Virus record (IMG/VR): IMGVR_UViG_3300015275_000001
Span: 1 to 47,802 of that record
Source of the DNA: a virus
DNA: 47,802 nt
Direction: 5' to 3' (one strand)
Under the pieces are notes generated by a model that searched no databases, was not told the origin of the DNA, and saw only the letters and a program-made list of their open reading frames with translations. Shown here piece by piece: positions 3,583-24,581 of the stretch (position 1 is the first letter of the stretch; the number at the start of each line of letters is the position of its first letter). Made by a program: the position numbers and the translations under genes.

Positions 3583-3592
3583 TTACCGCCGT
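3583..3592 (-). repeat. Late-operon junction element, copy E (minus strand CTGACGGCGGTAATT)
   Basis: ttaccgccgt overlaps the TGA of the J-like gene, 41 nt before the next ATG. Confidence 0.7.
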
Positions 3593-5799
3593 CAGACGTC
3601 CGGATTAACCTCTCCACCTCCGCCCCCGCCCACACCGCCGGGGCCTGAAGCGCCTCCGCCATTACTGGGAGGCGAGCCAATGGCTGGTGTGGTCACATAA
3701 CCGACATAATGGCGATACGGATGCGCTGCCGACAACGCCGCCTCATCAGTGCTTGTTGTGGCCTGATAGCCTACAGACCCGCCAGCCCGCGCGGCGTCAT
3801 CATAAAAGATTGAGTAATAGGTTTCAGCCGTCAACCCATCGACGCCACCGCCACTGACTGCGACAGTGCGATCACTATAGATACGATCATGGCTGCCGAT
3901 CGTAATAGATGAACCGCCGGTATCCGACTGTGCCGTAATCGTCAGCGCTTCGGACGGCTTGCTCGTCGCAATGATGGCGGACGCAATAGGCGCCGGATCG
4001 GCCGGGCTACCTACCGTCTCCACCGTCACCGTGTCGCTCCAGCCTGACAACTGCCCGCCCGCGCTCCGATACTCAACTTGCACCTGCACGTCCGCATTTA
4101 TTGGCACGAAGCTGGTCAACAGCGAGACAGAGGGGCCTGGGTCCTGATCGGGATAGGCCTGCTCGTTCCAGACGCCGGTTCCGACCCGCCAGCGCGCATA
4201 CCAAGTCAGGCCGGAGGTGCCGTCGCTCCCAACCGAGATCTGAATGCGCGCCCCCGTGCCCTCGACTGATCCATCCCCGGTAGCAGTCGCATACGATACC
4301 GCGGCGGAGGTAATGAGCGGCCTTGCTAACGGTTCAGGCGCATAGCGGTTGCCGACCGGCGCTCCTTCACCTTCTTCCGTAAACGGGTTCCAAGCATCAA
4401 TATTGGGATCGACCGCGACCCAATCGAACGTGAATCCGCCGCTCATTTCGTCCCGCTCAAGCGATATGATTTCAGCCCACCCCTTATAGAAGGTGGCGCC
4501 ACCCTCAGTCAGGTCGAGATTGATGTAGCGCTCGCCAAGCACGGTGCGACCGGAATAGTTCGTCGTGACCCGCCCACGGTCGGGTGCGTTATTTCGCGCC
4601 ATCTTGCGCTTCGCCAGTCGCCGGTTCTGTGTATGGCTGGGGGTGACGGCGCCAAGGTCTGCGGATCGGATCGCGCCGCGCTTGGCAATGTCTTCCTCGT
4701 CCCGCCATGCCTCCGCCTCAACCGAATTATAGTCATGCAGGCTGCTGACGTACGTGACGCCGATCTCGTTGACGAAATCCTCGTCTGCCACTCCGGATTG
4801 ATGGCTGAACGCGGTTATCTCATTGGGGCCGATGAATACGGTGGGCGTATAGACCCGGCCGGAATAGAGGATCAGGTGGCCCTCTTCGTTGAAGATGTAC
4901 CAGCCATCAAAGCACGCCAGCAGAGACCCGATCACGGACGCAGGCGCCTCAGTCGCTTTGTACGACAGGCAGGTCCGGTAGCGTATCTCCGAGCCTCCCG
5001 CCGCCAGGGGCTGCGCGGATCCCGCGTCATTGATTGCCGCGATGATGCGGGGTAGCTGCGGCACGAAGACCGCATTCCAGTCCTTGCCCCGCTCGACCAT
5101 CAGATACCAGATGAAGGCCAGCACCGCGTTCTCGCTGTGCTTCCACGTCGTCGGGTCATAGGCGTTCTGTGTAGGGTCGCGCGGGTCGAAGACCGGCGTC
5201 CACTGGCCTACCAGCGACATCGCCACCTGATCGCCTTGCGGGTAGGTTTCGAGGAAATATTTCTCCTTCTCCGGGGTTTTCAGGAGATAGCCCGTCACCA
5301 CGCCATCGCCGCGGTGCTGCGCGGTCCACTGCGGTAAGACGGCCTGTACGGCTCCGAATGCCGTTTCGCGCGGCAGGCCAAGGTTATAACCTGCCTTTAC
5401 ATGACCGCCCTGATAGCTCTTGTCGGGCAATGTCTGGACAACGCCGTTCGTGACTGTGACCTGCTCGTCGTTCAGATACACGCGCAGGATCGCAGCCGCT
5501 CGGCCATCATGGAACGCCCACACGTCGACCGTCGTGCCGTTCACCGTCTCAAAGCAGATGCTGGCACCGTAGAGGCGGGATATGCCGAATGCTCGAACGC
5601 GGGGAGGGCGGGGCGCGCGGATCGGTGTTTCAGTGGTTTGCGGCTTACCTGCACCAGCGTTGCCTAGGCTCGACACCAGTGATCCGACCGCTGCTGTGCC
5701 TAGCAGGATTGCCGCGCTGGCAAGCTGGCCAAGGCCGGGGATCACATTCACCGCGATCGCACCGGCTAATGTGATGATTTGCCCGAGTGCCCGGCTCAT
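3592..5799 (-). CDS. Host-specificity / central tail tip protein (lambda J-like, GTA orfg15-like), about 735 aa
   Basis: Large protein after the NlpC/P60-like gene. N-terminus is hydrophobic and Gly-rich, then GISRLYGASICFE...VYLND, typical of phage-tail_3-type host specificity proteins. ATG at 5799 makes an ATGA overlap (alternative ATG at 5811). Confidence 0.7.
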   Translation of the reverse strand: MSRALGQIITLAGAIAVNVIPGLGQLASAAILLGTAAVGSLVSSLGNAGAGKPQTTETPIRAPRPPRVRAFGISRLYGASICFETVNGTTVDVWAFHDGRAAAILRVYLNDEQVTVTNGVVQTLPDKSYQGGHVKAGYNLGLPRETAFGAVQAVLPQWTAQHRGDGVVTGYLLKTPEKEKYFLETYPQGDQVAMSLVGQWTPVFDPRDPTQNAYDPTTWKHSENAVLAFIWYLMVERGKDWNAVFVPQLPRIIAAINDAGSAQPLAAGGSEIRYRTCLSYKATEAPASVIGSLLACFDGWYIFNEEGHLILYSGRVYTPTVFIGPNEITAFSHQSGVADEDFVNEIGVTYVSSLHDYNSVEAEAWRDEEDIAKRGAIRSADLGAVTPSHTQNRRLAKRKMARNNAPDRGRVTTNYSGRTVLGERYINLDLTEGGATFYKGWAEIISLERDEMSGGFTFDWVAVDPNIDAWNPFTEEGEGAPVGNRYAPEPLARPLITSAAVSYATATGDGSVEGTGARIQISVGSDGTSGLTWYARWRVGTGVWNEQAYPDQDPGPSVSLLTSFVPINADVQVQVEYRSAGGQLSGWSDTVTVETVGSPADPAPIASAIIATSKPSEALTITAQSDTGGSSITIGSHDRIYSDRTVAVSGGGVDGLTAETYYSIFYDDAARAGGSVGYQATTSTDEAALSAAHPYRHYVGYVTTPAIGSPPSNGGGASGPGGVGGGGGGEVNPDV

Positions 5800-6194
5800 C
5801 TCGGCCCCCATACTGCAAGTGCAGTTGCCGGACCAAACGTCAGCCCGCGCTTAGCCGCCATAGCCCATTTTGAACTGGTCCAGATGGCACCCACCGGCTC
5901 CGGGCGCATCGCATCATTGACAGCTAGAACGATGCCCACATCGCCGGGACGCACCCCAACCACCCGACCTACGCCGATGGAAGAAAGGCCCCGGTCCCAT
6001 AGTTCAACCAGCCCGCCAGCCCGCTTGATGAAGCGCAGACCACCGCGGTCAGTCTGGTATCGGCCGCGCCATGTGGCCATCGGATCGCCGTGCCCCCACG
6101 ATACAGCCCATTCGCCAGGGAAAAAGCAGCAGTCGAAGGCGCCGGGCTCCCACGACCGGCTGACCGATGCCTTGAGGTAATCCGCCAGCGTCAT
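5796..6194 (-). CDS. NlpC/P60-like (papain-fold) tail-associated protein (132 aa)
   Basis: Motif W-x-PGAFDCC-FF..W plus GDVGIV and the position before the J-like gene match small phage tail K/P60-like proteins. ATGA coupling at 6191-6194. Confidence 0.5.
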   Translation of the reverse strand: MTLADYLKASVSRSWEPGAFDCCFFPGEWAVSWGHGDPMATWRGRYQTDRGGLRFIKRAGGLVELWDRGLSSIGVGRVVGVRPGDVGIVLAVNDAMRPEPVGAIWTSSKWAMAAKRGLTFGPATALAVWGPR

Positions 6195-6748
6195 TTCGCA
6201 CCAAAGCGGCGGGTCGAACCGGCCTGAAGGCTGGCAACGCGGGAAAAGATAGCGTCATCCGGCGATCGACGGCGCTGGTCAGCGTCCGTGAACCAGGCCA
6301 ATGAAGGATTGCTGCGGTCGGTATCGGTCGAGGCTACCGACAGGGTTATCGTCCGCTGACCACCCCGGTCGGCTGACTGCCTATCGGTCGTCAAGATATC
6401 GGCCTTGCCGCGCCAAGTCCAAACCGGCTTACCGGTGACCTGCCAATCAGGGTTGAGCATGACGTAACCGATGCGCAGGTCGGCGCCTTGCACGCTATCA
6501 CGATCATCAATGGCGAGGCGCACCGTTTCCGCCGTCACGCCGCTGACCTGAAAGTCAACGCGGTCCGCCAGCCCGTTCATCATCTGCTTCAGAACTGGCA
6601 CGCTTAGCAGCGCCCCCGCGCCACGGTAGATACCGCCCTGCGTGTCGACGTGATCGGCCGGGACCTGCATGTCCCCGAAGCCGGACCAGAGGCGCGCGAC
6701 AGGGTCGCAGGCAAGGCGCCAGAGGATGCAACGACGGTACACGGCCAT
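6191..6748 (-). CDS. Distal tail protein candidate (185 aa)
   Basis: First gene after the tape-measure block. Family not recognised by eye. Confidence 0.5.
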   Translation of the reverse strand: MAVYRRCILWRLACDPVARLWSGFGDMQVPADHVDTQGGIYRGAGALLSVPVLKQMMNGLADRVDFQVSGVTAETVRLAIDDRDSVQGADLRIGYVMLNPDWQVTGKPVWTWRGKADILTTDRQSADRGGQRTITLSVASTDTDRSNPSLAWFTDADQRRRSPDDAIFSRVASLQAGSTRRFGAK

Positions 6749-6780
6749 AGCGCCGTGATGTGGCGCTCAACGCGATGCAA

Positions 6781-6790
6781 TTACCGCCGT
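6781..6790 (-). repeat. Late-operon junction element, copy D (minus strand CTGTAACTCAACGGCGGTAATTGC)
   Basis: ttaccgccgt lies just downstream of the TAA (6795-6797) of the preceding ORF and before the ATG at 6748. Confidence 0.7.
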
Positions 6791-6794
6791 TGAG

Positions 6795-7112: not shown

Positions 7113-7199
7113 CGCGCTATTCCTGTTCAACAGCCTGTCCCGGCACACTGATCGGCTGACGCTACAATGTCACGCATCAATCTATTACCACACGGTAGC

Positions 7200-9308
7200 C
7201 TATATCGTGCGAGGCTGACCGAAGCGGTTAGAGGCTGCAACATAGCTAGGTGATTTGGCAAGCGTAGCTTTCCCCGCGTCGACATCCATCTGAGCTGCCT
7301 GGGTCAGGATATCTCGGCTGAGTTGATTTGCGAAGCCTTGCGGCGTCACACTATTCTGGGCGTTAACGGTGATGTTGAAGATGCGCTGCCCACTTGCGCC
7401 TCGAGGGCTAACAGCGCCCGGAGCGACGTTCAGCGTCTCACCCCGGCTAACCCGGGCGATCGGCTGTCCGTTCAAGCTGAGCAGGTTCTGGTCGACACCA
7501 GAGTTACCGCCTATCAACATGGAGCCGCCAGTCGCAAAGCCCGGAGTAGATGCCCCCACAGCCCCTTTTAGCGACTTTCCTAAATTTCCTAGCAGAGAAC
7601 CGAAGCCGCCACCGCCTTGGCTAAAGGACAGAATTGCTGCTCGCGCCGCCACGATTGCCAAGGTGCGTAAGCCATTACGCTGAAAATTTTCCCAGAAACG
7701 ATCGGATGATAAAGTGAACGCATCTTCCAACAGCCCAGCCAGCGAACGAACTCGATCTTCTCCAAGCTGACGCGCGCGCTCGTTAACTTCCCGCTCTGCC
7801 TCAAATTGCGCATCTCGTGAGGCATTTGCGGTCTTAACCATTTCGTCAAAATCGGTTGCTGGACCCAGAATGGTGGAACCGGCATCCATCTGAGCTTTAG
7901 AATACGCCTTTGCCCGATCCAGCACTGCCTGCACCCGCAGATCTGCTGCATTTGCGCGATTGAGCAAGCCAGCAGTCTGGGCCTTGTCGATCGTCTCAAT
8001 TTGCTCATTAAACTGCCGAACAGCTGCCTGCGTTGGGAAAAGCCGGTCTTCCAGCGCCTTCAGAGCTTCAGCCAGCTCCTTTTGCGCGGCTGCGGCTTCG
8101 CGCGCATCCTTGGCCTGTTCTCGAAGCGCCTGGGAATGCCCCTTCGCGGCATCCTTGGCGGCATTCACGCCACGTTCCGCCTCTGCGATCCGCGCGGTGT
8201 ATTCGGTCTGTGTGATCGTCCCGTTGCGCAGTTCTTCACGCGCCCGAGCGCGGACCTGCGCTAGATTGGCCTGAGCGCGCTGGAGGCCATTAGATGCTGA
8301 TGCCGCGAGAGCATCAGCATCAGCGAGCGCTGTGGACAACGAAGCGCCTGCCTGAGCCGCCTTTGTCGCTGCATCGCGTGTCTGGATCAGCTTACGTAAT
8401 TCAGCGCTATACGCAGCCTGACCGATGCGTCCTTGCTCAGCACGGCGGTTCAGGAGGTCGACGGCCCGTTCATAGCGGTTCGTGGCCTGCAAGACAGGAT
8501 CAAGGCTTTCCTGCACTGCCTGCTGTCGAATGCGGACGCTGGTGCGGCGGACATTGGCTTCTGCCGTCTGGACCAGCGTATCTTGCTCGGCAAGCTGGCG
8601 ACGAAGCGCAGAGGCATCAACGCCCGCTACCTGCTGGCGAATAAGAGCACCGCCGCCCTGGCCTGCCGTAGATGCGAAGCTCTCGGTGGTATTGATGCGT
8701 TCTTGAAGCTGGGCCTTGATCTGCTCGCGCTTGGCAGTCGCAGCGGCAAGGTATGCCGTTGCCTGAGCGTGGGCCACGAAGATTTCGCGCTGCCCGGTCT
8801 GAATAGCTTGGCGGCTGGCCTTTTCCATATCGCGAATGGCCTCAGCCAGGGTCTTGACCGCGCTCGCCTTTGTCTCGGCAGCGTCCGCGCCTTCCAGCAT
8901 TTTGGACGCAAAAGCGCCCGCGATCGAGATAACCGCGATGAAGCCAGGGAGCGCAATGCCGCGCAGCACCTGCCCGAGCGTGCCCCCCGCCGCGCTAATG
9001 TCTTGGAATGCCTGAACGAATTGAGGCGCCTGCTGCGCGAAGATGATGAATGGCGACTGCCCGCCACCAAGCTGCTGGCCAACATCACTGACTTGAAACC
9101 CGAGGTTACGAGTGGCGAAGCCAACCGCGTTGTGCGAGGCCACGATGCTGCGCGACGACGACTCAACCGTCCGCTCCGCTTGGGTAGCAGAGCGCTCGAT
9201 CTGGCTCATGCTGGAGTCGAAGGTGTTCGCAGAGCGAGTGACGCTGCTGTCTAGCTGACCAGTGCGGCCCTCAAGCGTGACGACGACAGTTTCAGCGTTG
9301 ACGGCCAT
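7200..9308 (-). CDS. Tail tape measure protein (702 aa)
   Basis: Long Ala/Gln/Glu-rich coiled-coil protein with a hydrophobic Gly-rich segment, directly after the tail chaperone genes. Confidence 0.85.
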   Translation of the reverse strand: MAVNAETVVVTLEGRTGQLDSSVTRSANTFDSSMSQIERSATQAERTVESSSRSIVASHNAVGFATRNLGFQVSDVGQQLGGGQSPFIIFAQQAPQFVQAFQDISAAGGTLGQVLRGIALPGFIAVISIAGAFASKMLEGADAAETKASAVKTLAEAIRDMEKASRQAIQTGQREIFVAHAQATAYLAAATAKREQIKAQLQERINTTESFASTAGQGGGALIRQQVAGVDASALRRQLAEQDTLVQTAEANVRRTSVRIRQQAVQESLDPVLQATNRYERAVDLLNRRAEQGRIGQAAYSAELRKLIQTRDAATKAAQAGASLSTALADADALAASASNGLQRAQANLAQVRARAREELRNGTITQTEYTARIAEAERGVNAAKDAAKGHSQALREQAKDAREAAAAQKELAEALKALEDRLFPTQAAVRQFNEQIETIDKAQTAGLLNRANAADLRVQAVLDRAKAYSKAQMDAGSTILGPATDFDEMVKTANASRDAQFEAEREVNERARQLGEDRVRSLAGLLEDAFTLSSDRFWENFQRNGLRTLAIVAARAAILSFSQGGGGFGSLLGNLGKSLKGAVGASTPGFATGGSMLIGGNSGVDQNLLSLNGQPIARVSRGETLNVAPGAVSPRGASGQRIFNITVNAQNSVTPQGFANQLSRDILTQAAQMDVDAGKATLAKSPSYVAASNRFGQPRTI

Positions 9309-9471: not shown

Positions 9472-9921
9472 TTACTGCTCCGATGTCGATCCAGTCTGAT
9501 CGGGGGCCGGGGCTTGCCCGGCGTCGGCTTCCCCCGGCGGGCTATACCCCATCACACGCGCACCGAGGATCGCGGCGGCAACAGCCCAACTTTCACGCAA
9601 GGGCGCATTATAGCTGTAGCGCTCAACGAGCTTGCGCGCCGTCGTGGCGTCGACTTTGATGTCTTCGCCATTGACGACGCCACCACCGCCGCCAATCAGG
9701 CCAAGGCGGATTGTCTCGAACAGATCCTCAACATAGGCTTCACCGCTTGCAGCATCTGCGATTGGCTGACCTTCAAGCAGATAGCGGCCTTTTAAGACAC
9801 GCCCATAGATAGCGAATATGCCCGCACCCGCCTTCTCCTGAAGCTCCGCCAGCTGGGGCAGCTTCAGGTCAAAGCGGTACTCGCCATCAGCATATTCCAG
9901 CTCAAGGGCGGTAAGGATCAT
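9472..9921 (-). CDS. Tail assembly chaperone, gene-transfer-agent-like family (149 aa)
   Basis: LELEYADGEYRFDLKLPQLAELQEK...IFAIY resembles GTA/phage tail tube chaperones. ATGA coupling to the major tail gene at 9918-9921. Confidence 0.65.
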   Translation of the reverse strand: MILTALELEYADGEYRFDLKLPQLAELQEKAGAGIFAIYGRVLKGRYLLEGQPIADAASGEAYVEDLFETIRLGLIGGGGGVVNGEDIKVDATTARKLVERYSYNAPLRESWAVAAAILGARVMGYSPPGEADAGQAPAPDQTGSTSEQ

Positions 9922-10370
9922 GCCGGAGCCGTGAACGCCCAAGTGCCATCGCTTTCGATTGTGATAGAAAGCGAGCCGTCTTGATTTTCTTCGCCGCCGA
10001 TATTCAGCGTCGTGCATACCCCCGGCCCTTGCCATTGACCGAGGGAGGTACCTGCCTCGTCATCCGGGTCGGAAAGGTCGAGCATCTGGAAGCGATAGTT
10101 GCGATGTTTGCCAGGCAAAACCTCAAGCAGCGCCTGCTGGTCAACGTTGTACACGCCGGAGCCAGTCAAAGTGCGACTCTCACTGTTCACGCGGATTTTG
10201 CGCTGGGCAACGCGACCAGGGAACGCGCAATCGCGAACTGACCGATTAGTCGTCTCAACGCTGCGATTGAAACCCGACGTTTGGACGCCGCATAGCTTGA
10301 GATAGGTGTTGGGGGTCGTCGGGTCCTCGACCCAGATAACCGCGAACTGGAACGTCTTCGGCTCCGACAT
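9918..10370 (-). CDS. Major tail (tube) protein (150 aa)
   Basis: Size and position. The ATG at 10370 is preceded by AAGGAGG. The longer ORF-track start lacks an RBS and runs into the intergenic element. Confidence 0.7.
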   Translation of the reverse strand: MSEPKTFQFAVIWVEDPTTPNTYLKLCGVQTSGFNRSVETTNRSVRDCAFPGRVAQRKIRVNSESRTLTGSGVYNVDQQALLEVLPGKHRNYRFQMLDLSDPDDEAGTSLGQWQGPGVCTTLNIGGEENQDGSLSITIESDGTWAFTAPA

Positions 10371-10417
10371 CAAGGCCTCCTTATTCGGCCTTGGTCTATG
10401 ACAGCGAGAAAGAGCAA

Positions 10418-10427
10418 TTACCGCCGT
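10418..10427 (-). repeat. Late-operon junction element, copy C (minus strand CTCTAACGGCGGTAATTGC)
   Basis: ttaccgccgt overlaps the TAA (10427-10429) of the preceding ORF, 56 nt before the major tail ATG. Confidence 0.7.
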
Positions 10428-10726
10428 TAGAGTTGCTTGCTCAGCCATTCGGTACGGCGCCGTGTCTGCTCCCGTTCGAACTGCGCACGGAACTCGACCT
10501 TTGAATTTACCATCGGTGCAGGCTCTACTGACATCAGCACAAGGCGCAGGCCTGATGCAGTATTATGGAGCGCGGCCTTGACGGTCTCGTCATCCTCCCA
10601 CGTCGCCCGGCGATCATGCTCATCAGCAAGCTGAATGACGTCGGCTTCGCTTATGACACCTGATCGAAGCATCAAGGTGATCGCCGCCAGCGCCATGCCT
10701 TCAGTCAAATTGTGGGGCGGGATCAT
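10427..10726 (-). CDS. Hypothetical protein (99 aa), moron-like
   Basis: ATG at 10726. Inserted between the tail terminator and the major tail gene. No motif recognised. Confidence 0.55.
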   Translation of the reverse strand: MIPPHNLTEGMALAAITLMLRSGVISEADVIQLADEHDRRATWEDDETVKAALHNTASGLRLVLMSVEPAPMVNSKVEFRAQFEREQTRRRTEWLSKQL

Positions 10727-12636: not shown

Positions 12637-14735
12637 ACCGGGATACTCGAGCCGCCATCTCGGGCGTAAATCTCGCTGATGGTGAGGTTGTCCGCGACGC
12701 CTGCCGCCACGTCAGCCGCCAGATAATCCATAAACTGCTGGAACCCGGCGGTCGTCATTCCGATGGCCGATGCGGTCGCGGCGATATCGTGGATGTAATA
12801 GATGATCGTTGCCTGGCGCAGTTTGGCCTTCTCGTACTGCGCGATTAGCTGGTTAACGGTGACCCCAGAGCCCATGCTGGTCGAGCACGCCGGAAGCGTC
12901 AGAGCTTGGTCTATGCCGAAGCGCGAATGGAAGTGGCCCTGAGACGGGCTGTAGAGCGTTGTGCGTCCGGTGAGGAAGCCCTGAGCCGCCAGCGCTGCCT
13001 GCATCTTGCCATTGTAGAACGCGCCGCGCTTGTCGATCAGGACAGCCGCCAGAGCCGCGCGTGTCGGCACGTTCTGGCTAACCTGATAGTGCGTGCTGTC
13101 CACGACAGCCGTGACCGTTGTACCGGTCGGGATAGCTGATCCTGCAAGCGTAAAGCCGATGTTCGCGCTATCGGTGGCAGGGACGGTGACGACATTGGAG
13201 CCGTCAGCCGTGCAACTGGCCAGATTGACCTTCGCCCCGAACGTGGCCCACGTCCCGTTGCTATAACAGCCGTGGTTCTTGCCGGGGTTGTCAAAACCGT
13301 TGTCTACCAACCACTGACGAACTCCTGCTGCTTCCGTCGCGGCGGTTGCGGGGTCTGAGCGGTTCGTGATCGGAGCGTCGTCGTTCGTGAAGTTGCAGGC
13401 AAGGTCCCAACCAGCCGCGCGCATTTGCCCCATCTGGGCCTTAGACAGGCGGTTGGCGTTCCCGACGTTCAGCGGCACGGTATAGCTGGTGCCACGCAGG
13501 CCGCGCGTCGTCATATACGGGAGCGCGATCGTTGCTGTCGTATCGAAGCAGTCATCAAACGACAGACACACGGTCGGGCGTCCGCCAGCGCGCGCCATGA
13601 GAGCATCATGACGGACCGTGGGCAACGAACGATACCGAGCCGATAGCGTGCCAGCCCCCGGCGTGTTCAGGCCCGAATGTTCCGACACATGGAAGGTATG
13701 CGGATGCCAGCCCAACGCCTGATCGGCGGGGTTGGGGTTGCTGTTGATGTTCTGAGTGTCGACGTCCTGAACCAAGCCGACGAACGATCCAGCGCGGCTG
13801 AACTGCGGATACGAGACCGGGTTTTGCTGCTCGGACTGCGGCTCCACGTAGGTCGCCAGATAGATAAGGCCAAGCGTCGAAGGGTCGATGCTAGTCGAGC
13901 CGTCAATCGTAAAGTTGGCGGTGCGCGTCGCCAGGACCGTGCCAGTTCCGGTACGATCAATCTTGAGCGAGCCCGAACCTTGCTTGGCGGACGGGTCGAT
14001 GGACAGCGTGACATTGGACGCCGTGTACGCGCTCAGCGTGTCAAAGCTGTCGAGCAGGATCGGCGCGGCATAGACAACCTGATACGCCACAGCATCAGTC
14101 AGAACGCCGGAGATATTGCCCTTGGCCACTAGGCGGAAACCAGCATCCCCGGCCGCTGCGATGTAGGTCGAAGCCGTCGCTCCGCTGATCGCCGTCTGGG
14201 TACGATCGCTGCTCAGCGCCTCGCGATACCACTGGATACCGGTCATCCCGGCGGGTGCGGTATAGGTCTGCCCGACCGAGCCGTCCTTGGTCGTGGTCAG
14301 CGCACCGAACGAACGGACCGCGGGCGCGCCGACCAGAACCTGCTGCGTGGAGCCAAGGTCGTCCTCGGCATACAGCCGATAGGTGATGGATCCATCCGGT
14401 TGTCGTTGCCCCGCGGCGCGGTACCGAACTAGCGTCCGGCCCGGCCCCATTAGCGCCAGCGCACTGGTCATCAGCTGATCGCGCGTAGTCGCGGTGATGT
14501 CGATCCGGCTGTCCCGGTAGCCCTGACCGACACCCGGCTCATATTCGCGCAGAGATACGGTCGAGACAGGGTAGGGGAGGCCACGCGACATCAACTGACC
14601 GTTAACCACTGAAAAGCCCGGAGATGCATCCCCCAGAACCTCCACCCGCCCGGTCGTCAGGCCCGAGATAGCCGCTTGGAAAGGGCGGCCCTGCACGCCC
14701 TGGGTGGTGGAGAGGGTGAGAGCATTGAGCGCCAT
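12633..14735 (-). CDS. Fibre-like structural protein with C-terminal polysaccharide deacetylase (CE4/NodB-like) domain (700 aa)
   Basis: RPTVCLSFDDCFD...(motif 1-like)...TIIYYIHDI (motif 5-like) at about aa 385-690. The N-terminal and central parts are beta-rich. The gene lies between the head genes and the connector genes. Confidence 0.6.
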   Translation of the reverse strand: MALNALTLSTTQGVQGRPFQAAISGLTTGRVEVLGDASPGFSVVNGQLMSRGLPYPVSTVSLREYEPGVGQGYRDSRIDITATTRDQLMTSALALMGPGRTLVRYRAAGQRQPDGSITYRLYAEDDLGSTQQVLVGAPAVRSFGALTTTKDGSVGQTYTAPAGMTGIQWYREALSSDRTQTAISGATASTYIAAAGDAGFRLVAKGNISGVLTDAVAYQVVYAAPILLDSFDTLSAYTASNVTLSIDPSAKQGSGSLKIDRTGTGTVLATRTANFTIDGSTSIDPSTLGLIYLATYVEPQSEQQNPVSYPQFSRAGSFVGLVQDVDTQNINSNPNPADQALGWHPHTFHVSEHSGLNTPGAGTLSARYRSLPTVRHDALMARAGGRPTVCLSFDDCFDTTATIALPYMTTRGLRGTSYTVPLNVGNANRLSKAQMGQMRAAGWDLACNFTNDDAPITNRSDPATAATEAAGVRQWLVDNGFDNPGKNHGCYSNGTWATFGAKVNLASCTADGSNVVTVPATDSANIGFTLAGSAIPTGTTVTAVVDSTHYQVSQNVPTRAALAAVLIDKRGAFYNGKMQAALAAQGFLTGRTTLYSPSQGHFHSRFGIDQALTLPACSTSMGSGVTVNQLIAQYEKAKLRQATIIYYIHDIAATASAIGMTTAGFQQFMDYLAADVAAGVADNLTISEIYARDGGSSIPV

Positions 14736-14767
14736 ACTGCCTCCATGCGGCTATGGGGTGGCGGGCT

Positions 14768-14777
14768 GTACCGCCGT
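14768..14777 (-). repeat. Late-operon junction element, copy B (minus strand CTGTAACGGCGGTACAG)
   Basis: gtaccgccgt overlaps the TAA (14777-14779), 41 nt before the ATG at 14735. The downstream box CCCCATAGCC and GCAGTATGGCG are shared with copy A. Confidence 0.75.
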
Positions 14778-14992
14778 TACAGACGGATGACCGCGCCGCC
14801 CGCGATTGCCGCGATCAACCCGAGCAGAGCGGGAGTGCCAGCTTCCTCAATGGTCGCAACGGGTGGGTCTAGATGCACGACAAGCGGGCTATCGGCGATG
14901 TAGACATTCTGGAACGCGACAGTAGCGTAATAGCCATAGCCGTTGACCTTCAGCTTGGCGGGAAGGCCTGCAACGCTGATTTCGGGATCCAT
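14777..14992 (-). CDS. Small protein with C-terminal membrane anchor (71 aa)
   Basis: The C-terminus PALLGLIAAIAGGAVIRL is hydrophobic. Confidence 0.5.
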   Translation of the reverse strand: MDPEISVAGLPAKLKVNGYGYYATVAFQNVYIADSPLVVHLDPPVATIEEAGTPALLGLIAAIAGGAVIRL

Positions 14993-15961: not shown

Positions 15962-15992
15962 AAAAAGGGCCGCCACTCGAAAGCAGCGGCCC
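15962..15992 (-). terminator. Rho-independent terminator after the capsid gene block
   Basis: The minus strand reads GGGCCGCTGCTTTCGAGTGGCGGCCC (about a 10-bp stem) followed by TTTTT, 25 nt after the stop at 16018. Confidence 0.7.
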
Positions 15993-17892: not shown

Positions 17893-19026
17893 TTATGCCG
17901 CTTCGGTGTTGTGGAACGGTTTCTTCCAAGCCGACGACAGGTTCGCCTTCTGCTTGGCGCGATCGTTCAGATACTCGGTGTGCGCGTCGGTGACCTGCGC
18001 AGGCGAGCCCAGCGGCTGGATCTTCTGTTCCGCAACCTTCGCGTCCTTGGTCGCGACAGCGAAGGAGGCGGCGATTTGCGCGTCGTTCCAGCCTTCAGCA
18101 GCATCGCCCATGACCTTGGTCACCGCCGCCTTCATGATGGCGGCCTCGTCCATCGCATCCGTCACCTCGACGCCGATTGCCTTGGCCTTGCCGACGACCT
18201 GGGCATATGCCTTAGCGGCATCACGCAGTTGGGCCGGAGTGGGCTTCGCGTCTTCCAGCGCCTTCTTTTCAGTCTTGAGCGTCGCGATTTCCGTGTCGCG
18301 CGCCGCGATGGTGGCGGCATGCTCGCCAACCGTCTTGGTCGCAGCGTCACGCGCGGCGATAAGAGTCTGAACGGTGGCGATTGCCGTATCGGCGTTCGCC
18401 ATGTCGACGGTCAGCCCGTCGATAACCATGGTCTTCACGGGCTTCTCCGTCTTCAGGGTGTCGAAAAGGTTGGAGGGGAGGGCGTCACAAATGGCGCAGT
18501 CGGAGCCAGCGCGGCCCCGGTCGACCAGCGCGACATGGTTCCCGATGATAGAACCGGGCTTCTGGCGGGCCTGGCACTTGGTGCCGTCCGCCGCGGTAAA
18601 ATCACCCACTTCGACGTCGCAGGCGTAGCCGTTGGACAACTCGCGCTTGCCGCCGTTGACCTTGGCCACGGTGGTGGCGTCGGTCAGCATCAGGTCGAAG
18701 GTGAGGTATTCGCCATCACGCATCGCACCCATGATTGTCCCGCGCGCGTGGGTCCGCCAATTGTCAGCGGTGACGGGCTGGGAGGGGTGATCGTCGGTGA
18801 TCGGCTTGCCGATGAAACTGCGAACGGCGCGTTCGTCAAAGACCGCGTTCTCGTCACGCAGAACATTGACGACGGCCGTGTCTCGCAGCCCATGCGTATT
18901 GTCGGGGTCTATCTCGCGACCGGCATACTGATACACGCCGGTTCGGGCGGCTCGTGCTCGAACAGCCAAAGCACCGCCTTGCAGCGGGCGGGGGGCGTCG
19001 AGCGTCAGGGCATCCGAGAATAGCAC
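17893..19026 (-). CDS. Head scaffolding/maturation protein (DUF2213-like, 377 aa)
   Basis: The N-terminal part ...VYQYAGREI...VLRDENAVFDE..V.SF.GKPITDDHP... is DUF2213-like. The C-terminal part is an Ala/Lys/Asp-rich coiled coil. GTG start. Confidence 0.65.
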   Translation of the reverse strand: MLFSDALTLDAPRPLQGGALAVRARAARTGVYQYAGREIDPDNTHGLRDTAVVNVLRDENAVFDERAVRSFIGKPITDDHPSQPVTADNWRTHARGTIMGAMRDGEYLTFDLMLTDATTVAKVNGGKRELSNGYACDVEVGDFTAADGTKCQARQKPGSIIGNHVALVDRGRAGSDCAICDALPSNLFDTLKTEKPVKTMVIDGLTVDMANADTAIATVQTLIAARDAATKTVGEHAATIAARDTEIATLKTEKKALEDAKPTPAQLRDAAKAYAQVVGKAKAIGVEVTDAMDEAAIMKAAVTKVMGDAAEGWNDAQIAASFAVATKDAKVAEQKIQPLGSPAQVTDAHTEYLNDRAKQKANLSSAWKKPFHNTEAA

Positions 19027-19058
19027 CCTGCCCGAATATTCGGGCTAGACGGGGCGAT

Positions 19059-19068
19059 TTACCGCCGT
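19059..19068 (-). repeat. Late-operon junction element, copy F (minus strand CTGACGGCGGTAAAT)
   Basis: ttaccgccgt lies 5 nt after the TGA (19073-19075). It is followed by CCCCGTCTAGCCC and the 16-nt palindrome GCCCGAATATTCGGGC, before the GTG at 19026. Confidence 0.7.
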
Positions 19069-19072
19069 CAGG

Positions 19073-19345
19073 TCAGAGATTGTCGATTGGCATCCCGTTT
19101 TGGTCGTATGCTATCCAGCCGGTTTCCGCATCAGTCACCGTCTCGATCACGATGCCGTTATAGACCAACTCGCTCCACATCGCGGCAGGATAGGCCAGCG
19201 ATCCGGCCATTTCTGGAGCAAGGTTGTCCGCGAACGGCTTGGCGGCTCGGATGCGGACGACCTTGCGCCCGTCTTGCGCCGCCCTCTCAGTCAGTCGGTC
19301 GATCTGCCACCTGATGGGCTGGTCGCCATGAATGCCGTCTGTCAT
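19073..19345 (-). CDS. Hypothetical protein (90 aa)
   Basis: ATGA-type coupling to the upstream ORF. Confidence 0.55.
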   Translation of the reverse strand: MTDGIHGDQPIRWQIDRLTERAAQDGRKVVRIRAAKPFADNLAPEMAGSLAYPAAMWSELVYNGIVIETVTDAETGWIAYDQNGMPIDNL

Positions 19346-20974: not shown

Positions 20975-21154
20975 TCACCTCGACGACGGCGCGACAGTCA
21001 CCTGCACTTTGACGAAGCTCATTGCGATCGCTGTGGCCCGGTCAACGCTGATCATACGCAGCGCGACCAAGGGATACAGCATCCGGATGACCACCGCAGC
21101 CACCTTGGCCTTTACGGACAGGTCCAAGGTTATGGCGCCCTCAGTCTTGGCCAT
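20975..21154 (-). CDS. Small hypothetical protein (59 aa)
   Basis: ATG at 21154 has a GAGGAG RBS and overlaps the portal stop by 14 nt. Confidence 0.4.
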   Translation of the reverse strand: MAKTEGAITLDLSVKAKVAAVVIRMLYPLVALRMISVDRATAIAMSFVKVQVTVAPSSR

Positions 21155-23033
21155 TGCTGATCTCCTCAAAGATTTCCGGCCCCAGCTCGATAGGGCCGCG
21201 ATACGGCTCGACATTGGTCAGGTCGACTGGATCGCCGGTCAGGGAGATATGCGGCTGATAGTCGGGTAAGTCCCACGACGCGCCAGCTTCACGCATCTCG
21301 CGGTTCCGCCAGCCGAGATCCGACGACGCGAACATGAGGACGGCAGTGCGATCCCCCAGCGGCTCGACCACGCGCGGCCCACCCGCCGTGATCAACATAT
21401 CGCCGCTACCCTTGCCGCTATAGTCCACCCACGACGACCCCATCTTGATCCAGTCGACCGGGGTCGTGCTGTAGGCGATGGTGACGTGCAGATCGTCTTG
21501 CAGATCGGGCAATCCCTGCGATTTAGCCCACGCTTTCAGATCGCCCACGTTCTTGACCTTGCGGCTGACGTAGAGCGAGCGCGGCGCGGCATCATTCGCG
21601 GCACGACGCCGACCGGCGCTTCCATCACCGGTCGGATCGTCGGCAGATGCAGGATCACCTCCTTCCACTCCGTTGCCGGATTGCGTGAGGGCAGATGGGT
21701 CGGAACCGTCGTCTTCGGGAATGAGGCCGAAGCGCTCTTGTTCGGGAATTTCCGCCAAAGCCGCGTCGATGCCGACCAGCCAGCTTTCGCGATCGGAAAG
21801 GGTGTTCTGCACCGCCTTGGTCAGTGCCTGATCTGGGACAGTGCCGGTGCCTTGCAGCTTCTCGACGGCCTGAGTGAAGACGTAGAAAGTGTCCGCGTCT
21901 TCCTTCTCGGTCGGAGCCCACAGCGGCGCCCACTTCCACGACACCGTGCCCGGATCGGTGATGCCAGCGGACCGCAGCAGGACGGGGTCGATCTGGTCGA
22001 GGCACGGCCGCGTCTCAAGCTGCTGGCCAGCCGATACCGTCTTTGCCCAGTTCTGATCGTCATAGGCGCCGGTCGCATTCATGCCAGCCGGTGATCGGCC
22101 GGTGAGGCGGGTGAACGGGATGTCCGCAACGGTCGCCACCATCTGGAGGAAAGCGTCCATCATGGCCGGGATGCCGTTCCATGACACCTGATAGTCATCG
22201 ATTTTCTCGGCAGGAAGATCGCCCCCATTGCCAAGGTCATAGACGCTGGCGTTCAGAGAGTTTTCACCCTCCGCCAGCAGCCCGACGCGCGCGGCAATCT
22301 TGGAGTACCCATCCGGCGTGGCGACACGATCGGAGAGGTTGCCGATGCCGACGCGGGTCAGCTTGGCCTTCTTGATGAGCGCCGCGAACCATGCCTGCGC
22401 ATTGTCGCTGTTCTCCGCCTCTCGCAGCACGGTCAGCAGGCGGCTATCGCCCCAGAACGCTTCCTCATCGGTAAGCAGCGAGCCGACCGGCAGGGCGGGC
22501 CCACGGAAGCACACGACGCGGCTGGGGTGGATTGGGACCGATCGTCCGTCCGTATCCATGAGGAAGCGGGTCGGCTCTCCATAACGGGGGTCGGTAATCT
22601 CGCGGATCCAGCCATCGCCCCGGATTTGCCACCGGCTGACGACGTTGACCGCGACCAGCCCGCCTGCGTTGATCGTCGCTGGGTCGAGGGGCTGCGAATG
22701 GTCCCCGGCCGTGATGAGGATGAGCGCACCGCCCCCGATGCCGCGAAGGACTTCCGCCTGGCGCACCTTGGCGATCAGTCCGAGCCGCTTTTCCTCAGCC
22801 TCGATCTTGCCCGCCAGATCGCCATCCGCCTGCCAGTCGCGCCATTCACGGACGCGATCATTGGCGGGGATCGCGATGACCTTACGCAGCAGGCCACTCG
22901 ACTGGTAGGCGGCGATGGCCAGCTGATAATTAAAGACCCCGTAGGTCCCGAACGTGGATCGGTTGCCGAAACGGGAGAGTGGCGAGGCTACCGCTGCGAT
23001 CGCACGGGTCAAGCTGTCGGTGATCCACGCCAT
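21141..23033 (-). CDS. Portal protein (DUF1073-like) fused to a C-terminal 2H-phosphoesterase (Acb1/LigT-like) domain (630 aa)
   Basis: Directly downstream of the large terminase. Aa 1-440 are portal-like and aa 440-485 form an acidic/Gly linker. Aa 486-630 carry two H-x-T/S motifs 79 aa apart (DLHVTIAYS and QPHISLTGD). Confidence 0.8.
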   Translation of the reverse strand: MAWITDSLTRAIAAVASPLSRFGNRSTFGTYGVFNYQLAIAAYQSSGLLRKVIAIPANDRVREWRDWQADGDLAGKIEAEEKRLGLIAKVRQAEVLRGIGGGALILITAGDHSQPLDPATINAGGLVAVNVVSRWQIRGDGWIREITDPRYGEPTRFLMDTDGRSVPIHPSRVVCFRGPALPVGSLLTDEEAFWGDSRLLTVLREAENSDNAQAWFAALIKKAKLTRVGIGNLSDRVATPDGYSKIAARVGLLAEGENSLNASVYDLGNGGDLPAEKIDDYQVSWNGIPAMMDAFLQMVATVADIPFTRLTGRSPAGMNATGAYDDQNWAKTVSAGQQLETRPCLDQIDPVLLRSAGITDPGTVSWKWAPLWAPTEKEDADTFYVFTQAVEKLQGTGTVPDQALTKAVQNTLSDRESWLVGIDAALAEIPEQERFGLIPEDDGSDPSALTQSGNGVEGGDPASADDPTGDGSAGRRRAANDAAPRSLYVSRKVKNVGDLKAWAKSQGLPDLQDDLHVTIAYSTTPVDWIKMGSSWVDYSGKGSGDMLITAGGPRVVEPLGDRTAVLMFASSDLGWRNREMREAGASWDLPDYQPHISLTGDPVDLTNVEPYRGPIELGPEIFEEISNGQD

Positions 23034-23066
23034 ACTGCTTGGGCTATGGCGGGGAGGACGAGGGAG

Positions 23067-23076
23067 TTACCGCCGT
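23067..23076 (-). repeat. Late-operon junction element, copy A (minus strand CTGTAACGGCGGTAACT)
   Basis: ttaccgccgt overlaps the terminase TAA (23076-23078), 42 nt before the portal ATG. Confidence 0.75.
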
Positions 23077-24581
23077 TACAGTAGGGCGTCGAGGTTGTAG
23101 CCCCCACCACTTCCCAACATATCGGCGATCGCGTCCATCAACGGGTCGACCTGATCGTCCCAGCCGGTGCCAAGGCCATCAAACATCTGAAGCTCGGCAC
23201 GCAGCGCCACCTTGCATTCGTGATTCTCGGGCAGGTGAACCATCCCTGTCGCGATCCAGGGCGCGGCGTCTAGGCCCCGCGTGTACTTGTCCTTGTCGCG
23301 GGGGATGCCAATCACTGGGATTTGCTGGTTGCGCCGCAATGACTGGATCAGCCCCGTGCCAGACGCCTTGTCCTCGACCTTAAAACCGCGTGGCGTCAGC
23401 GCCTTATGCTTCTCCCAGAATGCCTTGGCTGCCTTCTCAAGCTCCGGGGCCTCCCATTTGCCTCGCACTTGGTCGATCAGGTATATCCCGCTGGCAGCCT
23501 TCCCCCATAGCTGGATCACGCTGAAGTCGTTACGCTCCCCTGTTTTCTGCGCGGTATCGGCGTAGATCGAATAATACTCGATCGCGGGCAGATCTTTCCA
23601 CCACTTGAAACCATCCATGTTGAACAGCGCGCCTTCTATCGACACCGGCCGTTGCATGTACTGGCTGGCGAAGGTGTAGGCGTCCGCCTTGAGCACCTCG
23701 ATCTCCGTCGCGTCATGCTTCTCGCGCCAGAGCGGGCCATTCGGGAGGTTGTGCTGAATGGGCAGGCCGTGGGTCCACTCGACTGGGTAGGGCTCGCTGT
23801 TGTCGATCAAGACCGGCAGGTTGAGGTGGTGCCACTTCTCACCAGTGCCGCCCGTCAGCAGGTGCCCCACGAAGTCGTCCGAGTGCAGCCGCTGCATGAT
23901 GACGATGATAGGCACGTCATCATGCGCCAGGCGCGACCGAAAAGTGTTGGTAGCACGCTGGTTGACCGTCTTGCGCTTGGTCGGGCTGAACGCGTCGTCC
24001 GGCTTCAGCGGGTCGTCAATGACCAGCGCCCCGGTGAACATCGTGCGGTCCATGTACCCGGCGCGGAAGCCCGTGATAGGGCCACCAGCAGCCTTTGCCA
24101 GCATACCACCACCCGCAGTCGTCTTCCACCTGTCCTTGGCCTTGCTGTCGACCCTGACAGCCACCTCCTGCACCGCTTGATAGCCGTCGAGCGCCACCAA
24201 CCCCAGCACCTTGTCGCTATTCTCCCGCGCTAGATCGTCGGAAAACGTCGCATGGATGAACCGAGACTTCGGGTTGCGGTGGAAGCCCTTGGCGATGAAA
24301 TTGACGACCGCCGCCTCGGTCTTGGTATAGCCAGGGGGCAGGGTGATGATTAGGCGGGTAATCTCGCCATTCAGCACACGGTCCAGCGTGTCACCGATCG
24401 CGCGATGATGCGGCCCCTCAATGAACTCCATCCCCTCGCGCTCGGGGAAGTACCAGCGCGCGAAGTCCAGCAGCTTGCCTTCCGGCTTTAGCGCCTCAGC
24501 CTTGCGCTTGGCGACGACAGCCGTCAGCAGCGCTACGCGGGCAGCGCGGTCAGAGTCCGAGAGTGGCAGGGTCGATGCCAA
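23076..24581 (-). CDS. terL: Terminase large subunit (501 aa)
   Basis: Typical phage TerL layout with an N-terminal ATPase and a C-terminal nuclease (...VIDDP...; ...DDQVDPLMDAI...). Position between TerS and portal. The start is uncertain: TTG at 24581, and the next ATG removes 50 aa. Confidence 0.85.
   Translation of the reverse strand: MASTLPLSDSDRAARVALLTAVVAKRKAEALKPEGKLLDFARWYFPEREGMEFIEGPHHRAIGDTLDRVLNGEITRLIITLPPGYTKTEAAVVNFIAKGFHRNPKSRFIHATFSDDLARENSDKVLGLVALDGYQAVQEVAVRVDSKAKDRWKTTAGGGMLAKAAGGPITGFRAGYMDRTMFTGALVIDDPLKPDDAFSPTKRKTVNQRATNTFRSRLAHDDVPIIVIMQRLHSDDFVGHLLTGGTGEKWHHLNLPVLIDNSEPYPVEWTHGLPIQHNLPNGPLWREKHDATEIEVLKADAYTFASQYMQRPVSIEGALFNMDGFKWWKDLPAIEYYSIYADTAQKTGERNDFSVIQLWGKAASGIYLIDQVRGKWEAPELEKAAKAFWEKHKALTPRGFKVEDKASGTGLIQSLRRNQQIPVIGIPRDKDKYTRGLDAAPWIATGMVHLPENHECKVALRAELQMFDGLGTGWDDQVDPLMDAIADMLGSGGGYNLDALL

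Follow-up and report, generated by a model that had tools for sequence, protein, structure and literature searches.

What is the role of a short motif that recurs six times, always in the same orientation, between the structural genes of one phage operon? In the window analysed here (the whole 47,802-nt virus record IMGVR_UViG_3300015275_000001), we consider it likely that each of the six copies serves as the upstream recognition element of an internal late promoter in a temperate Sphingomonas siphovirus (prophage). Among the roles proposed in the first-pass annotation, binding sites for a phage late regulator came close to what the evidence supports.

Repeated motif at the junctions of the late operon

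Six copies of the 9-mer TACCGCCGT were found in the window, all on the + strand (3584, 6782, 10419, 14769, 19060 and 23068), compared with a mean of 0.23 and a maximum of 2 in dinucleotide shuffles (Poisson P ~2e-7). The six-fold occurrence in a single orientation described in the first-pass annotation was therefore borne out; every copy it listed is present, at coordinates given one base too low because a flanking base had been included. A PWM scan of the window returned no other good score except a one-mismatch intragenic site at 6535. Reading of the individual junctions confirmed that all six copies lie in short gaps of the minus-strand late operon (Table 1).

The first-pass annotation also had the element begin invariably at the stop codon of the upstream gene. 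In copies A, B, C and E, the stop of the upstream ORF is indeed the T(A/G)A of the motif at -2 to 0, and in copies D and F it lies 5 nt further upstream. In relatives, however, the T(G/A)A of the motif is the true stop at only ~32 of 70 sites, and at the remaining sites the upstream stop is located as far as 90 nt upstream. The motif is thus not tied to stop codons, and the overlap is a by-product of tight gene packing. Leu precedes the stop in five of the six upstream ORFs, as previously noted (for B, the ORF is a small one). TGA and TAA both occur within the box, in one frame.

Table 1 Predicted late promoters and candidate reader genes in the window
Feature	Coordinates	Strand	Box	-10-like element	Start codon (offset)	Basis or remark
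Late promoter A (terL to portal)	23033..23079	-	cTGTAACGGCGGTAAc, 23066-23079	CATAGCC, 23042-23048	portal ATG, 23033 (+43)	predicted from box, -10 and start geometry
Late promoter F (to prohead protease/scaffold gene)	19026..19071	-	19058-19071	TA, 19038/19037 (+30/+31)	GTG, 19026 (+42)	predicted
Late promoter B (to 700-aa gene)	14735..14780	-	14767-14780, then C in place of A	CATAG, 14751-14755	ATG, 14735 (+42)	predicted; atypical copy
Late promoter C (to major tail gene)	10370..10430	-	10417-10430	CATAGAC, 10394-10400	ATG, 10370 (+57)	predicted
Late promoter D (to 185-aa distal-tail-type gene)	6748..6793	-	6780-6793	CA, not TA; A at 6759 (+31) after C	ATG, 6748 (+42)	predicted
Late promoter E (739-aa tail hub/fibre gene to 225-aa gene)	3551..3595	-	3582-3595	CGTAGCC, 3559-3565	ATG, 3551 (+41)	predicted
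Possible weak seventh promoter, after tape-measure gene	7148..7197	-	degenerate copy, 7194-7183; GGTAAT core, 7184-7189	TA, 7164/7163 (+30/+31)	GTG, 7148 (+46)	possible
79-aa gene directly upstream of terS	24974..25213	-				positional candidate
176-aa gene, ParB/Noc/KorB-like helix-turn-helix domain	25225..25755	-				AF2 and Foldseek

Spacing of the box, the -10-like element and the start codon

Offsets were counted from the first A of ACGGCGGTA, and sites were pooled from the window and its relatives. A TA was found at +30/+31 in 86 of 141 ACGGCGGTA-type sites, with no other offset exceeding 11/141. The second box noticed earlier downstream of some copies (CCATAGCC) is therefore real, and more regular than had been stated. 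The next start codon is located at +42 or +43 in 68 of the 141 sites, and in 46/56 it follows the TA by 12-13 nt. GGTAAC is separated from the C(A/G)TAG box by 17-19 bp, and the TA of the upstream box from the TA of the -10 by exactly 23 bp. In the window itself, five of the six copies have the start codon at +41 to +43.

Relative to a predicted transcription start at about +42, mostly right at the next gene's start codon, cTGACGGCGGTAAc is most likely the box at about -45 to -32 of a two-part promoter, where it would stand in for a normal TTGAC-type -35. The conserved TA, within a -10-like consensus c(C/G)(A/C)TAGcc, would occupy -12/-11 of a -10 element that is recognised by region 2 of a sigma belonging to the sigma70 family. 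Judged by its distances (17-19 bp, 23 bp and 12-13 nt), this geometry is that of a promoter of the sigma70 family whose -35 region is non-canonical, and the earlier rejection of a sigma70 promoter on grounds of spacing was wrong. Sigma70-consensus promoters were not above chance in the late region; the early region contains TTGACT-17-CATTAT and TTGATA-17-CATATT sites.

The start codons fall into two classes. An SD core was present in 6 of 78 genes starting at +40 to +46 and in 36 of 39 starting at +55 to +85, a split that is expected if transcription begins near +42. Leaderless mRNAs are accordingly predicted for the window genes that start at +41 to +43 without a Shine-Dalgarno sequence. Such mRNAs are common in Alphaproteobacteria, with 375 in Caulobacter (PMC4117421) and 171 in S. 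meliloti, where all mapped leaderless starts were AUG (PMC3616915). The protease gene, by contrast, would be leaderless with a GTG start. Its orthologues in relatives have an ATG at +42/+43, and the start called at 18936 probably truncates the gene by 30 codons. Copy C, before the major tail gene, is the sole window copy with a leader bearing AAGGAGG; this promoter would produce a short leader (predicted at ~15 nt) with a strong SD, and the major-tail junctions in relatives also belong to the leadered, SD-bearing class.

At the orthologous portal junctions of relatives, the box is found at the same distance as in copy A. Copy B, with the lowest PWM score, has its CATAG box 5 nt closer than usual and an SD-like GGAGG before the ATG, and its orthologue in the relative L001 has an identical layout. 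Copy D has a divergent 5' edge, with CAA where TGA is usual. The displaced -10-like box and GGAGG of B, the CA of D and the GTG start of the protease gene count against the promoter reading. The degenerate seventh copy proposed after the tape-measure gene resembles the motif in GGTAA alone; its TA nevertheless falls exactly at +30/+31 with a GTG at +46, and looser xxGCGGTAA boxes were found in relatives.

Box variety in relatives and alternative explanations

The element recurs at the same junctions in relatives: the same geometry was found at ~140 non-redundant sites on >50 related Sphingomonadaceae phage and prophage contigs. In ~2 Mb of relatives oriented by protein match, 108 copies were forward and 13 reverse. 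At these positions, relatives can also have different boxes that are specific to the phage (for example, CCGTCCGTAG, CCGCCGTAAT, ACGACGGTAA, TGAGGGGTATAAA and CGAACCTACAG). When seven different boxes at the same junctions were aligned on the shared TA, the peak was exactly at +30 and the starts at +42/43. Specifically, TA was at +30 in 11/11 ACGACGGTAA, 10/10 AACCTACAG, 13/15 GGG(G/T)TATAA and 16/27 GCCGTAAT sites; in the CCGTCCGTAG-box family the peak was weak (8/46), which speaks against the promoter reading. Box type differs even between close relatives whose MCPs are 81-84% identical. Moreover, one-base variants such as ACGACGGTAA and ACGGAGGTAA are common to all copies read within a genome, which looks like the signature of co-evolution with a DNA-binding reader. 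The Caulobacterales relatives have no boxes, and their junctions are SD-coupled instead. Rhizobium phage RHph_N28_2, the closest relative to have been isolated, lacks the box and encodes a NusG-like antiterminator. Box variety at a fixed TA(+30)/start geometry, together with the absence of boxes in Caulobacterales, points to promoters read by a phage-specific factor.

That the promoters are read instead by an ECF-type alternative sigma of the host, with box type reflecting the sigma exploited, is unlikely. ECF promoters have AAC in the -35 and CGT in the -10 with a spacer of 16-17, as in TGTAAC-N17-CGAC and TGAAAC-N16-CGTA of B. subtilis, and the GGTAAC-N17-C(G/A)TA of the ACGGCGGTA, ACGACGGTAA and ACGGAGGTAA boxes resembles this layout. 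No ECF or other sigma gene was detected in the phage, nor any phage gene co-varying with box type, as a host factor would allow. However, the ACGGCGGTA box spans Sphingomonas and Novosphingobium prophages, while other Sphingomonas/Sphingobium prophages carry different boxes, and the differences in box type between close relatives also argue against a host reader. Other box families keep the geometry without AAC, the TGAGGGGTATAAA and CGAACCTACAG boxes having none at the right place, and the conserved block reaches 8-10 nt further upstream than an ECF -35. Late genes hanging on a stress-gated host sigma would also be unusual. We regard as very unlikely a role as stoperator-like sites, by which an immunity repressor would silence the late operon in the lysogen and box variety would mark immunity groups, even though asymmetric sites of 12-14 bp in many copies, one orientation and short gaps often overlapping stops, differing between otherwise close relatives, are what it would lead one to expect. 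In phage L5, the stoperator sequence is also the early-promoter operator, whereas here no copy, even with one mismatch, occurs in the immunity/early-promoter region (32.0-33.3 kb). The SD dichotomy would also be left unexplained. Cluster A mycobacteriophage stoperators (PMC9283540) are likewise asymmetric, repeated sites of ~13 bp in one orientation and in short gaps, multi-copy and phage-specific, but they number dozens; here there are six to eight sites, all in the late operon and none at early promoters, at a fixed distance from a -10-like TA and a start codon. Cro/C1-type HTH proteins are encoded in the window at 32525-32944 (+ strand) and 31608-31973 (- strand).

Action of the motif in RNA, as a processing site, stability element, translational enhancer or reinitiation signal, is less probable still. 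The constant strand and the fixed start-codon distance would suit it, and local hairpins are possible at D, E and F (z about -1.4 to -2.1), but the six copies have no fold in common and no Rfam family was matched, so that the RNA processing or stability role suggested earlier found no support. The motif is G+C-rich, unlike RNase E sites, and the conserved TA at +30/+31 is a DNA-type -10 signal. Near genes lacking an SD and far genes having one are predicted by a transcription start, not by an RNA enhancer; a fixed gap of ~42 nt without SD, with SDs at the longer gaps, is the opposite of the coupling that translational reinitiation would need. The inverted repeats pointed out around D, E and B are present in the sequence; since they share no common fold (z -2.1 to +0.5) and no hairpin conservation is visible in the related sites read, they were treated as incidental. 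The least probable reading is that the boxes are primarily module-boundary sequences promoting homologous recombination between phages. In the comparison of mosaic breakpoints, 62 of 447 blastn HSP ends lay near the six boxes (~2% expected), and in several relatives similarity ends exactly at 19071-19073, 14785-14791 and 6791. However, 42 of the 62 ends pile up at one junction, that of the protease gene, the remaining five boxes being no richer in breakpoints than box-less junctions, and neither the -10 box nor the start-codon distance nor the strict orientation is explained. Recombination at the boxes is most readily understood as a by-product of promoters that the phages share.

The putative reader and comparable phage systems

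For the promoters favoured here, the putative reader, whose existence we infer from sequence, is presumably phage-specific; it may be an activator that occupies the -35 region or may act as a sigma-like subunit. Counting against this, Pfam and PHROGs searches of ~55 ORFs detected no sigma factor and no Ogr, Mor/C, Q, RinA or ArpU. Two conserved genes upstream of terS are the only ones in its vicinity common to box-bearing phages, and neither co-varies with box type, which also speaks against a phage reader. The 79-aa gene, a candidate late-transcription component by position, occurs with every box type in the box-bearing loci and is missing from the Caulobacterales relatives, which have no boxes. 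Its family has >350 members, all unnamed, and its AF2 model comprises four helices without a convincing fold match. The 176-aa protein (AF2 pLDDT 83.5) gave Noc and ParB DNA-binding domains as top Foldseek matches (E 6e-3, probability 1.0). It is a second positional candidate for a reader component and could equally serve DNA packaging. Its gene is absent from two box-bearing phages (L012 and L045), and phage L044, which has the TGAGGGGTATAAA box, carries an HTH type otherwise seen with CCGTCCGTAG boxes.

The arrangement resembles the activator-dependent late promoters of temperate phages, such as the Ogr/B-dependent PP, PO, PV and PF of P2/186 and the C- and Mor-dependent promoters of Mu, in that several promoters share one conserved upstream box, have a recognisable -10 without a TTGACA-type -35, and precede morphogenetic gene blocks. 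In those systems, the gene for the regulator is usually found immediately ahead of the late region. Unlike Ogr sites, which are centred near -55, the box here is asymmetric and predicted at -45 to -32; no Ogr/Delta, Mor/C or other known activator domain was detected, and most transcripts are predicted to be leaderless. The MotA-dependent middle promoters of T4 also have a phage box in place of the -35 and keep a sigma70-type -10 (sigma appropriation). The MotA box, which requires AsiA, has its centre at -30, whereas the present phage, a temperate alphaproteobacterial siphovirus, has no MotA/AsiA relatives. Cluster K mycobacteriophage SAS are likewise conserved, asymmetric junction repeats in one orientation that sometimes include the upstream stop, but SAS are positioned 3-7 bp away from the start codon, carry the SD and are found in the half of the genome that does not encode structural proteins (PMC3203893); the boxes here are 42 nt upstream of genes without SD, in the structural operon. 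Lambda Q and GafYZ of the Caulobacter GTA (PMC11150451), the latter in an alphaproteobacterial phage-like element, serve the same task of expressing a 14-25 kb morphogenesis cluster by the opposite solution, processive antitermination with one promoter and terminator read-through in place of many internal promoters.

The motif thus adds a new member to a well-known class of phage control elements. Presumably active late in infection, the six promoters would boost and balance the portal, protease/scaffold, head-completion, major tail, distal tail and tail-tip modules along the 25-kb operon.

The repeated motif and its setting

The 9-mer TACCGCCGT occurs six times in the window, on the + strand only (starts at 3584, 6782, 10419, 14769, 19060 and 23068), against a mean of 0.23 and a maximum of 2 copies in dinucleotide shuffles of the window (Poisson P ~2e-7). 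The motif is real and highly non-random. Read on the minus strand, all six copies are ACGGCGGTA and lie in the short gaps of the minus-strand structural operon. A position weight matrix trained on relatives found a sole further good match in the window, a one-mismatch intragenic site at 6535. As noted in the first-pass annotation, the upstream ORF ends in Leu at five of the six copies, a second, CCATAGCC-like box is present downstream of the motif, and a degenerate copy is present in the sequence behind the tape-measure gene.

That annotation also placed the motif always at the upstream stop codon, which holds only in part. Counting from the first A of ACGGCGGTA, T(A/G)A at -2 to 0 is the upstream stop in four copies of the window, and in two the stop lies 5 nt further upstream; in the broader sample T(G/A)A is a real stop in only ~32 of 70 sites. 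The trinucleotide itself is nearly invariant, also at sites such as copy F whose upstream stop lies elsewhere, and one frame of the box (TGA CGG CGG TAA) holds both TGA and TAA. In our reading, the overlap with stop codons means that a tightly packed genome uses the box opportunistically.

The window corresponds to a metagenome contig, ENA ERZ27250470 k141_205869 of 47,820 bp, and is a circularly permuted temperate phage genome. A tRNA scan of the window found nothing, and the gene directly following the integrase codes for a T5orf172/MUG113 (GIY-YIG-like) protein. The capsid protein shares 99% identity with its counterpart in a contig of Sphingomonas sp. NPDC019816. Related prophages occur in S. 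metalli (for example, strain CGMCC 1.15330), Novosphingobium, S. phyllosphaerae and Sphingobium, and Caulobacterales contain more distant relatives. A near-identity search of GenBank phages with the late region gave no match; among isolates, Rhizobium phage RHph_N28_2 comes nearest, at a capsid identity of 44%. About 110 related loci were gathered via the capsid and portal proteins, and IMG/VR was also scanned for the 14-mer CTGACGGCGGTAAC. Many of these loci hold several copies of the 9-mer, with 108 forward and 13 reverse occurrences when the loci are oriented by protein match.

Features of the window and start codons behind the box copies (start positions counted from the first A of ACGGCGGTA)
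Feature	Coordinates	Strand	Box copy in front	Start codon
Tail hub/fibre	3592-5811	-		
Tape measure	7200-9308	-		
Major tail	9918-10370	-	C	+57, with AAGGAGG
700-aa protein	12633-14735	-	B	+42
Major capsid	16399-17409	-		
Prohead protease/scaffold	17893-19026	-	F	+42, GTG
Portal	21141-23033	-	A	+43
Large terminase	23076-24581	-		
185-aa distal-tail-type gene			D	+42
225-aa gene			E	+41
79-aa protein	24974-25213	-		
176-aa protein	25225-25755	-		
GcrA-like 196-aa protein	30735-31325	-		
Cro/C1-type HTH protein	31608-31973	-		
Early control region	32029-33220			
Cro/C1-type HTH protein	32525-32944	+		
Integrase	40423-41538			
T5orf172/MUG113 protein	41574-42137	+		
Lysozyme	46137-46841	late strand		

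The C-terminal ~140 aa of the portal (21141-21650, -) form a 2H-phosphodiesterase domain, annotated as Acb1 (PF23474) in precomputed hits; aa 488-602 match phrog_755 'RNA ligase', and the HxT/S motifs HVTIAY and HISLTG are visible. Many portals of relatives are long (~625 aa) and others short (~480 aa). A portal-fused anti-CBASS-like nuclease would sit in the virion or be delivered with it.

Promoter-like geometry of the boxes

Alignment of 44 non-redundant sites revealed a conserved block, C-T-G-ACGGCGGTA-A-c, at -3 to +10, followed by a variable stretch and then T(+30)A(+31). In a larger sample of 141-145 sites, TA occupied +30/+31 in 86 of 141 ACGGCGGTA-type sites, and no more than 11 of 141 had it at any other offset. 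In 78 sites a long ORF had its first start codon at +40 to +46, and in 39 at +55 to +85. A Shine-Dalgarno (SD) core (GGAG, GAGG or AGGA) preceded only 6 of the 78 near starts versus 36 of the 39 far starts, and the start codon followed the -10 T by 12-13 nt in 46 of 56 cases.

This layout is that of a promoter, in which +30/+31 would be the -10 T/A and transcription should start at about +42. With this start, the box would cover approximately -45 to -32, its own TA falling at -35/-34. The TA at +30/+31 would correspond to the T-12/A-11 of a sigma70-family -10 element, which lies 6-8 nt upstream of the transcription start. Canonical sigma70 promoters have a TTGACA-like hexamer 16-19 bp upstream of the -10; at the -35 position the sites here carry TAACnn or GGTAAC instead. 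As in activator-dependent phage late promoters, one box is repeated at a fixed distance from the -10 element, here in six copies. Genes outside the near-start class are predicted to have a short leader carrying the SD. Leaderless mRNAs are frequent in Alphaproteobacteria, with 375 reported in Caulobacter (PMC4117421) and 171 in S. meliloti (PMC3616915). Judged from sequence geometry and the comparison with relatives, the copies probably mark internal late promoters, six or perhaps seven in number, whose -35 region holds a phage-specific box and whose transcripts would mostly be leaderless. Orthologue alignment and promoter geometry also indicate that the protease/scaffold gene probably starts at GTG 19026 (377 aa), the public call at 18936 (347 aa) being 30 codons too short.

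A scan of the late region with the sigma70 consensus gave four sites versus 5.2 expected, none above chance, whereas the early region contains the divergent pair TTGACT-17-CATTAT and TTGATA-17-CATATT at 33.06-33.20 kb; hence, the boxes of the late region differ from ordinary host promoters. These sigma70-like matches (33168-33196, +; 33088-33060, -) belong to the early control region, which also holds the genes of the two Cro/C1-type HTH proteins. The one strong intrinsic terminator (15992-15967, -), with an 11-bp G+C-rich stem followed by TTTTTG, lies right behind the capsid/decoration module. It is inside the late operon, and the next genes (15508-15963 and 15002-15511) have no box in front. 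No terminator-like site, defined as a G+C-rich hairpin plus T run, coincides with a box.

Box types among relatives and alternative readings

In relatives without ACGGCGGTA, a different repeated box takes its place at the same junctions, namely those of the portal, protease, head-completion, major-tail and tail genes. The variants include CCGTCCGTAG, CC(C/A)GCCGTAAT, ACGACGGTAAAC, ACGGAGGTAAC, TGAGGG(G/T)TATAAA, CGAACCTACAGC and looser xxGCGGTAA forms, and the form ACGACGGTAA corresponds to a G3 to A change in the box. Since two automatic box callers were too noisy, box types were assigned by eye from junction sequences and with fixed patterns. The -10 TA peak of the ACGGCGGTA sites recurs in six other box families. 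When the families were aligned on the TA shared with the window's box, the peak lay at exactly +30 and starts at +42/+43 in every family, so that 23 bp separate the box TA from the -10 TA in seven families. TA at +30 was found in 11/11, 10/10, 13/15 and 16/27 sites of four families, and the peak was weaker in the CCGTCCGTAG family (8/46).

Within a genome, one-base box variants are common to all copies read. Box type can differ between the window and phages with 81-84% identical capsid proteins, and the same box is also found in phages that share only ~41% capsid identity, as well as in prophages from different genera. Such a pattern would be expected if promoter specificities co-evolve with a cognate reader encoded by the phage. 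The Caulobacterales relatives have no box and show tight SD-coupled junctions. RHph_N28_2 has no repeated box; at the head of its late region (1-690 of the fetched locus) lies a gene for a NusG-like antiterminator, suggestive of another strategy of late expression within the same broad lineage.

Several other roles could be imagined for a short asymmetric repeat between genes. In phage L5, the stoperator sequence presumably doubles as an early-promoter operator; here, no match with up to one mismatch occurs in the immunity region (32.0-33.3 kb). A repressor site would also leave the -10 and start-codon geometry unexplained, so this reading is disfavoured, even though the asymmetry, single orientation and phage specificity of the boxes fit the stoperators of Cluster A mycobacteriophages (PMC9283540). 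The boxes might instead be recombination linkers, as the first-pass annotation proposed for module boundaries, and HSP ends are indeed enriched near boxes (62 of 447). However, 42 of these 62 lie at the protease junction alone; the other five junctions show no excess, being no richer than box-less junctions, and recombination is at most a side effect. An RNA element is disfavoured, the whole window having no Rfam match at the gathering score and the six sites folding differently (z -2.1 to +0.5); the inverted repeats around some copies that the annotation had described show no visible conservation in those related sites that were read. Translational reinitiation is likewise disfavoured: a fixed ~42-nt gap without SD is the reverse of what coupling requires, and an SD is present where the gap is longer.

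Within the promoter reading, ACGGCGGTA-type boxes look like ECF promoters (GGTAAC-N17-CGTA). ECF promoters have AAC in the -35 and CGT in the -10, 16-17 bp apart; here, GGTAAC has the last base of its AAC at +10 and C(G/A)TA begins at +28, leaving a 17-bp gap. Against a plain ECF layout, CATA and CGTA are equally frequent in the -10, and AAC is missing at that place from the TGAGGGGTATAAA and CGAACCTACAG boxes. In their proposed workings the boxes are akin to the activator- or sigma-dependent late promoters of P2 Ogr and Mu C and to the replacement of the -35 by T4 MotA. They differ from the start-associated sequences of Cluster K phages, which lie 3-7 bp upstream of the start and contain an SD core (PMC3203893), in lying 42 nt upstream, with no SD at 72 of the 78 near starts. 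They also contrast with the single promoter plus antitermination of lambda and the Caulobacter GTA (PMC11150451). A literature search with the string ACGGCGGTAA returned primers and unrelated sequences only, and keyword searches on late promoters in Sphingomonas or alphaproteobacterial phages returned nothing relevant.

Candidate readers of the box

Pfam and PHROGs scans of ~55 ORFs of the window found no sigma factor and no Ogr, Mor/C, Q, RinA or ArpU-type regulator; the only matches were weak ones of the Cro/C1 and GcrA-like HTH types. The GcrA-like protein has a weak N-terminal HTH below the Pfam cut-off and is an unlikely reader, as only one other box-bearing locus has a GcrA-like protein. 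In the 6-10 kb upstream of the portal, only two non-packaging families, both encoded immediately upstream of terS, are widely common to box-bearing phages.

One of them, the 79-aa protein, accompanies every box type and is present in none of the box-less relatives sampled. Its family has more than 350 public members, all unnamed; no Pfam, PHROG or PDB relatives were found, and the structural model shows four helices with no convincing fold match. As a specificity determinant it was rejected, its sequence groups cutting across box types. The family had no stretch conserved enough for an alignment-based locus search. For the 176-aa protein, the model (pLDDT 83.5) gives a match to the HTH domain with which Noc, ParB and KorB bind DNA. 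The protein is a stand-alone HTH domain without the N-terminal CTPase domain and adjoins the terminase genes; one homologue is named a DUF222 protein in UniRef. It, too, was rejected as a specificity determinant: two related loci (L012 and L045) have boxes without a ParB-like gene, and a third with a TGAGGGGTATAAA box (L044) has the HTH type otherwise paired with CCGTCCGTAG boxes. It might mark the packaging site instead. In another relative, 160 bp upstream of the ParB-like gene (L040, positions 1310-1470) hold a cluster of GTTACCACC, eight copies facing both ways in an iteron- or operator-like arrangement.

An unsupervised search over 92 box-labelled loci found no protein family whose similarity follows box type, its top hits being a tape-measure-like protein and spurious antisense ORFs. 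The reader may be encoded outside the stretches fetched, may be a host factor, or may be the 79-aa protein seeing only the common (C/G)(C/G)GTA(A/G) core. We offer as a tentative and rather doubtful proposal that a new class of phage late-transcription factor, with the 79-aa family as the leading candidate, alone or with a partner, redirects the RNA polymerase of the host towards promoters whose -35 is of the (C/G)(C/G)GTA(A/G) type, and that its specificity has diversified into at least seven phage-specific 'dialects' among Sphingomonadaceae phages, like the promoter/RNA-polymerase specificities of T7-like phages.

The main interest lies in which phage gene reads the box and in how the box dialects diversified. 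One-base variants and box switches between near-identical structural modules provide natural experiments on promoter-reader co-evolution. In practice, late gene starts in this phage lineage can be recognised simply and specifically by the box plus TA at +30, and the geometry of the box corrects gene starts such as, probably, that of the protease. If the promoter reading is true, a 25-kb morphogenesis operon would be driven by many internal promoters launching leaderless mRNAs, in contrast to the classical single late promoter with antitermination, and the dialects would constitute a set of orthogonal, phage-specific promoter types for the Sphingomonadaceae, for which genetic tools are few and hardly any phages have been characterised.
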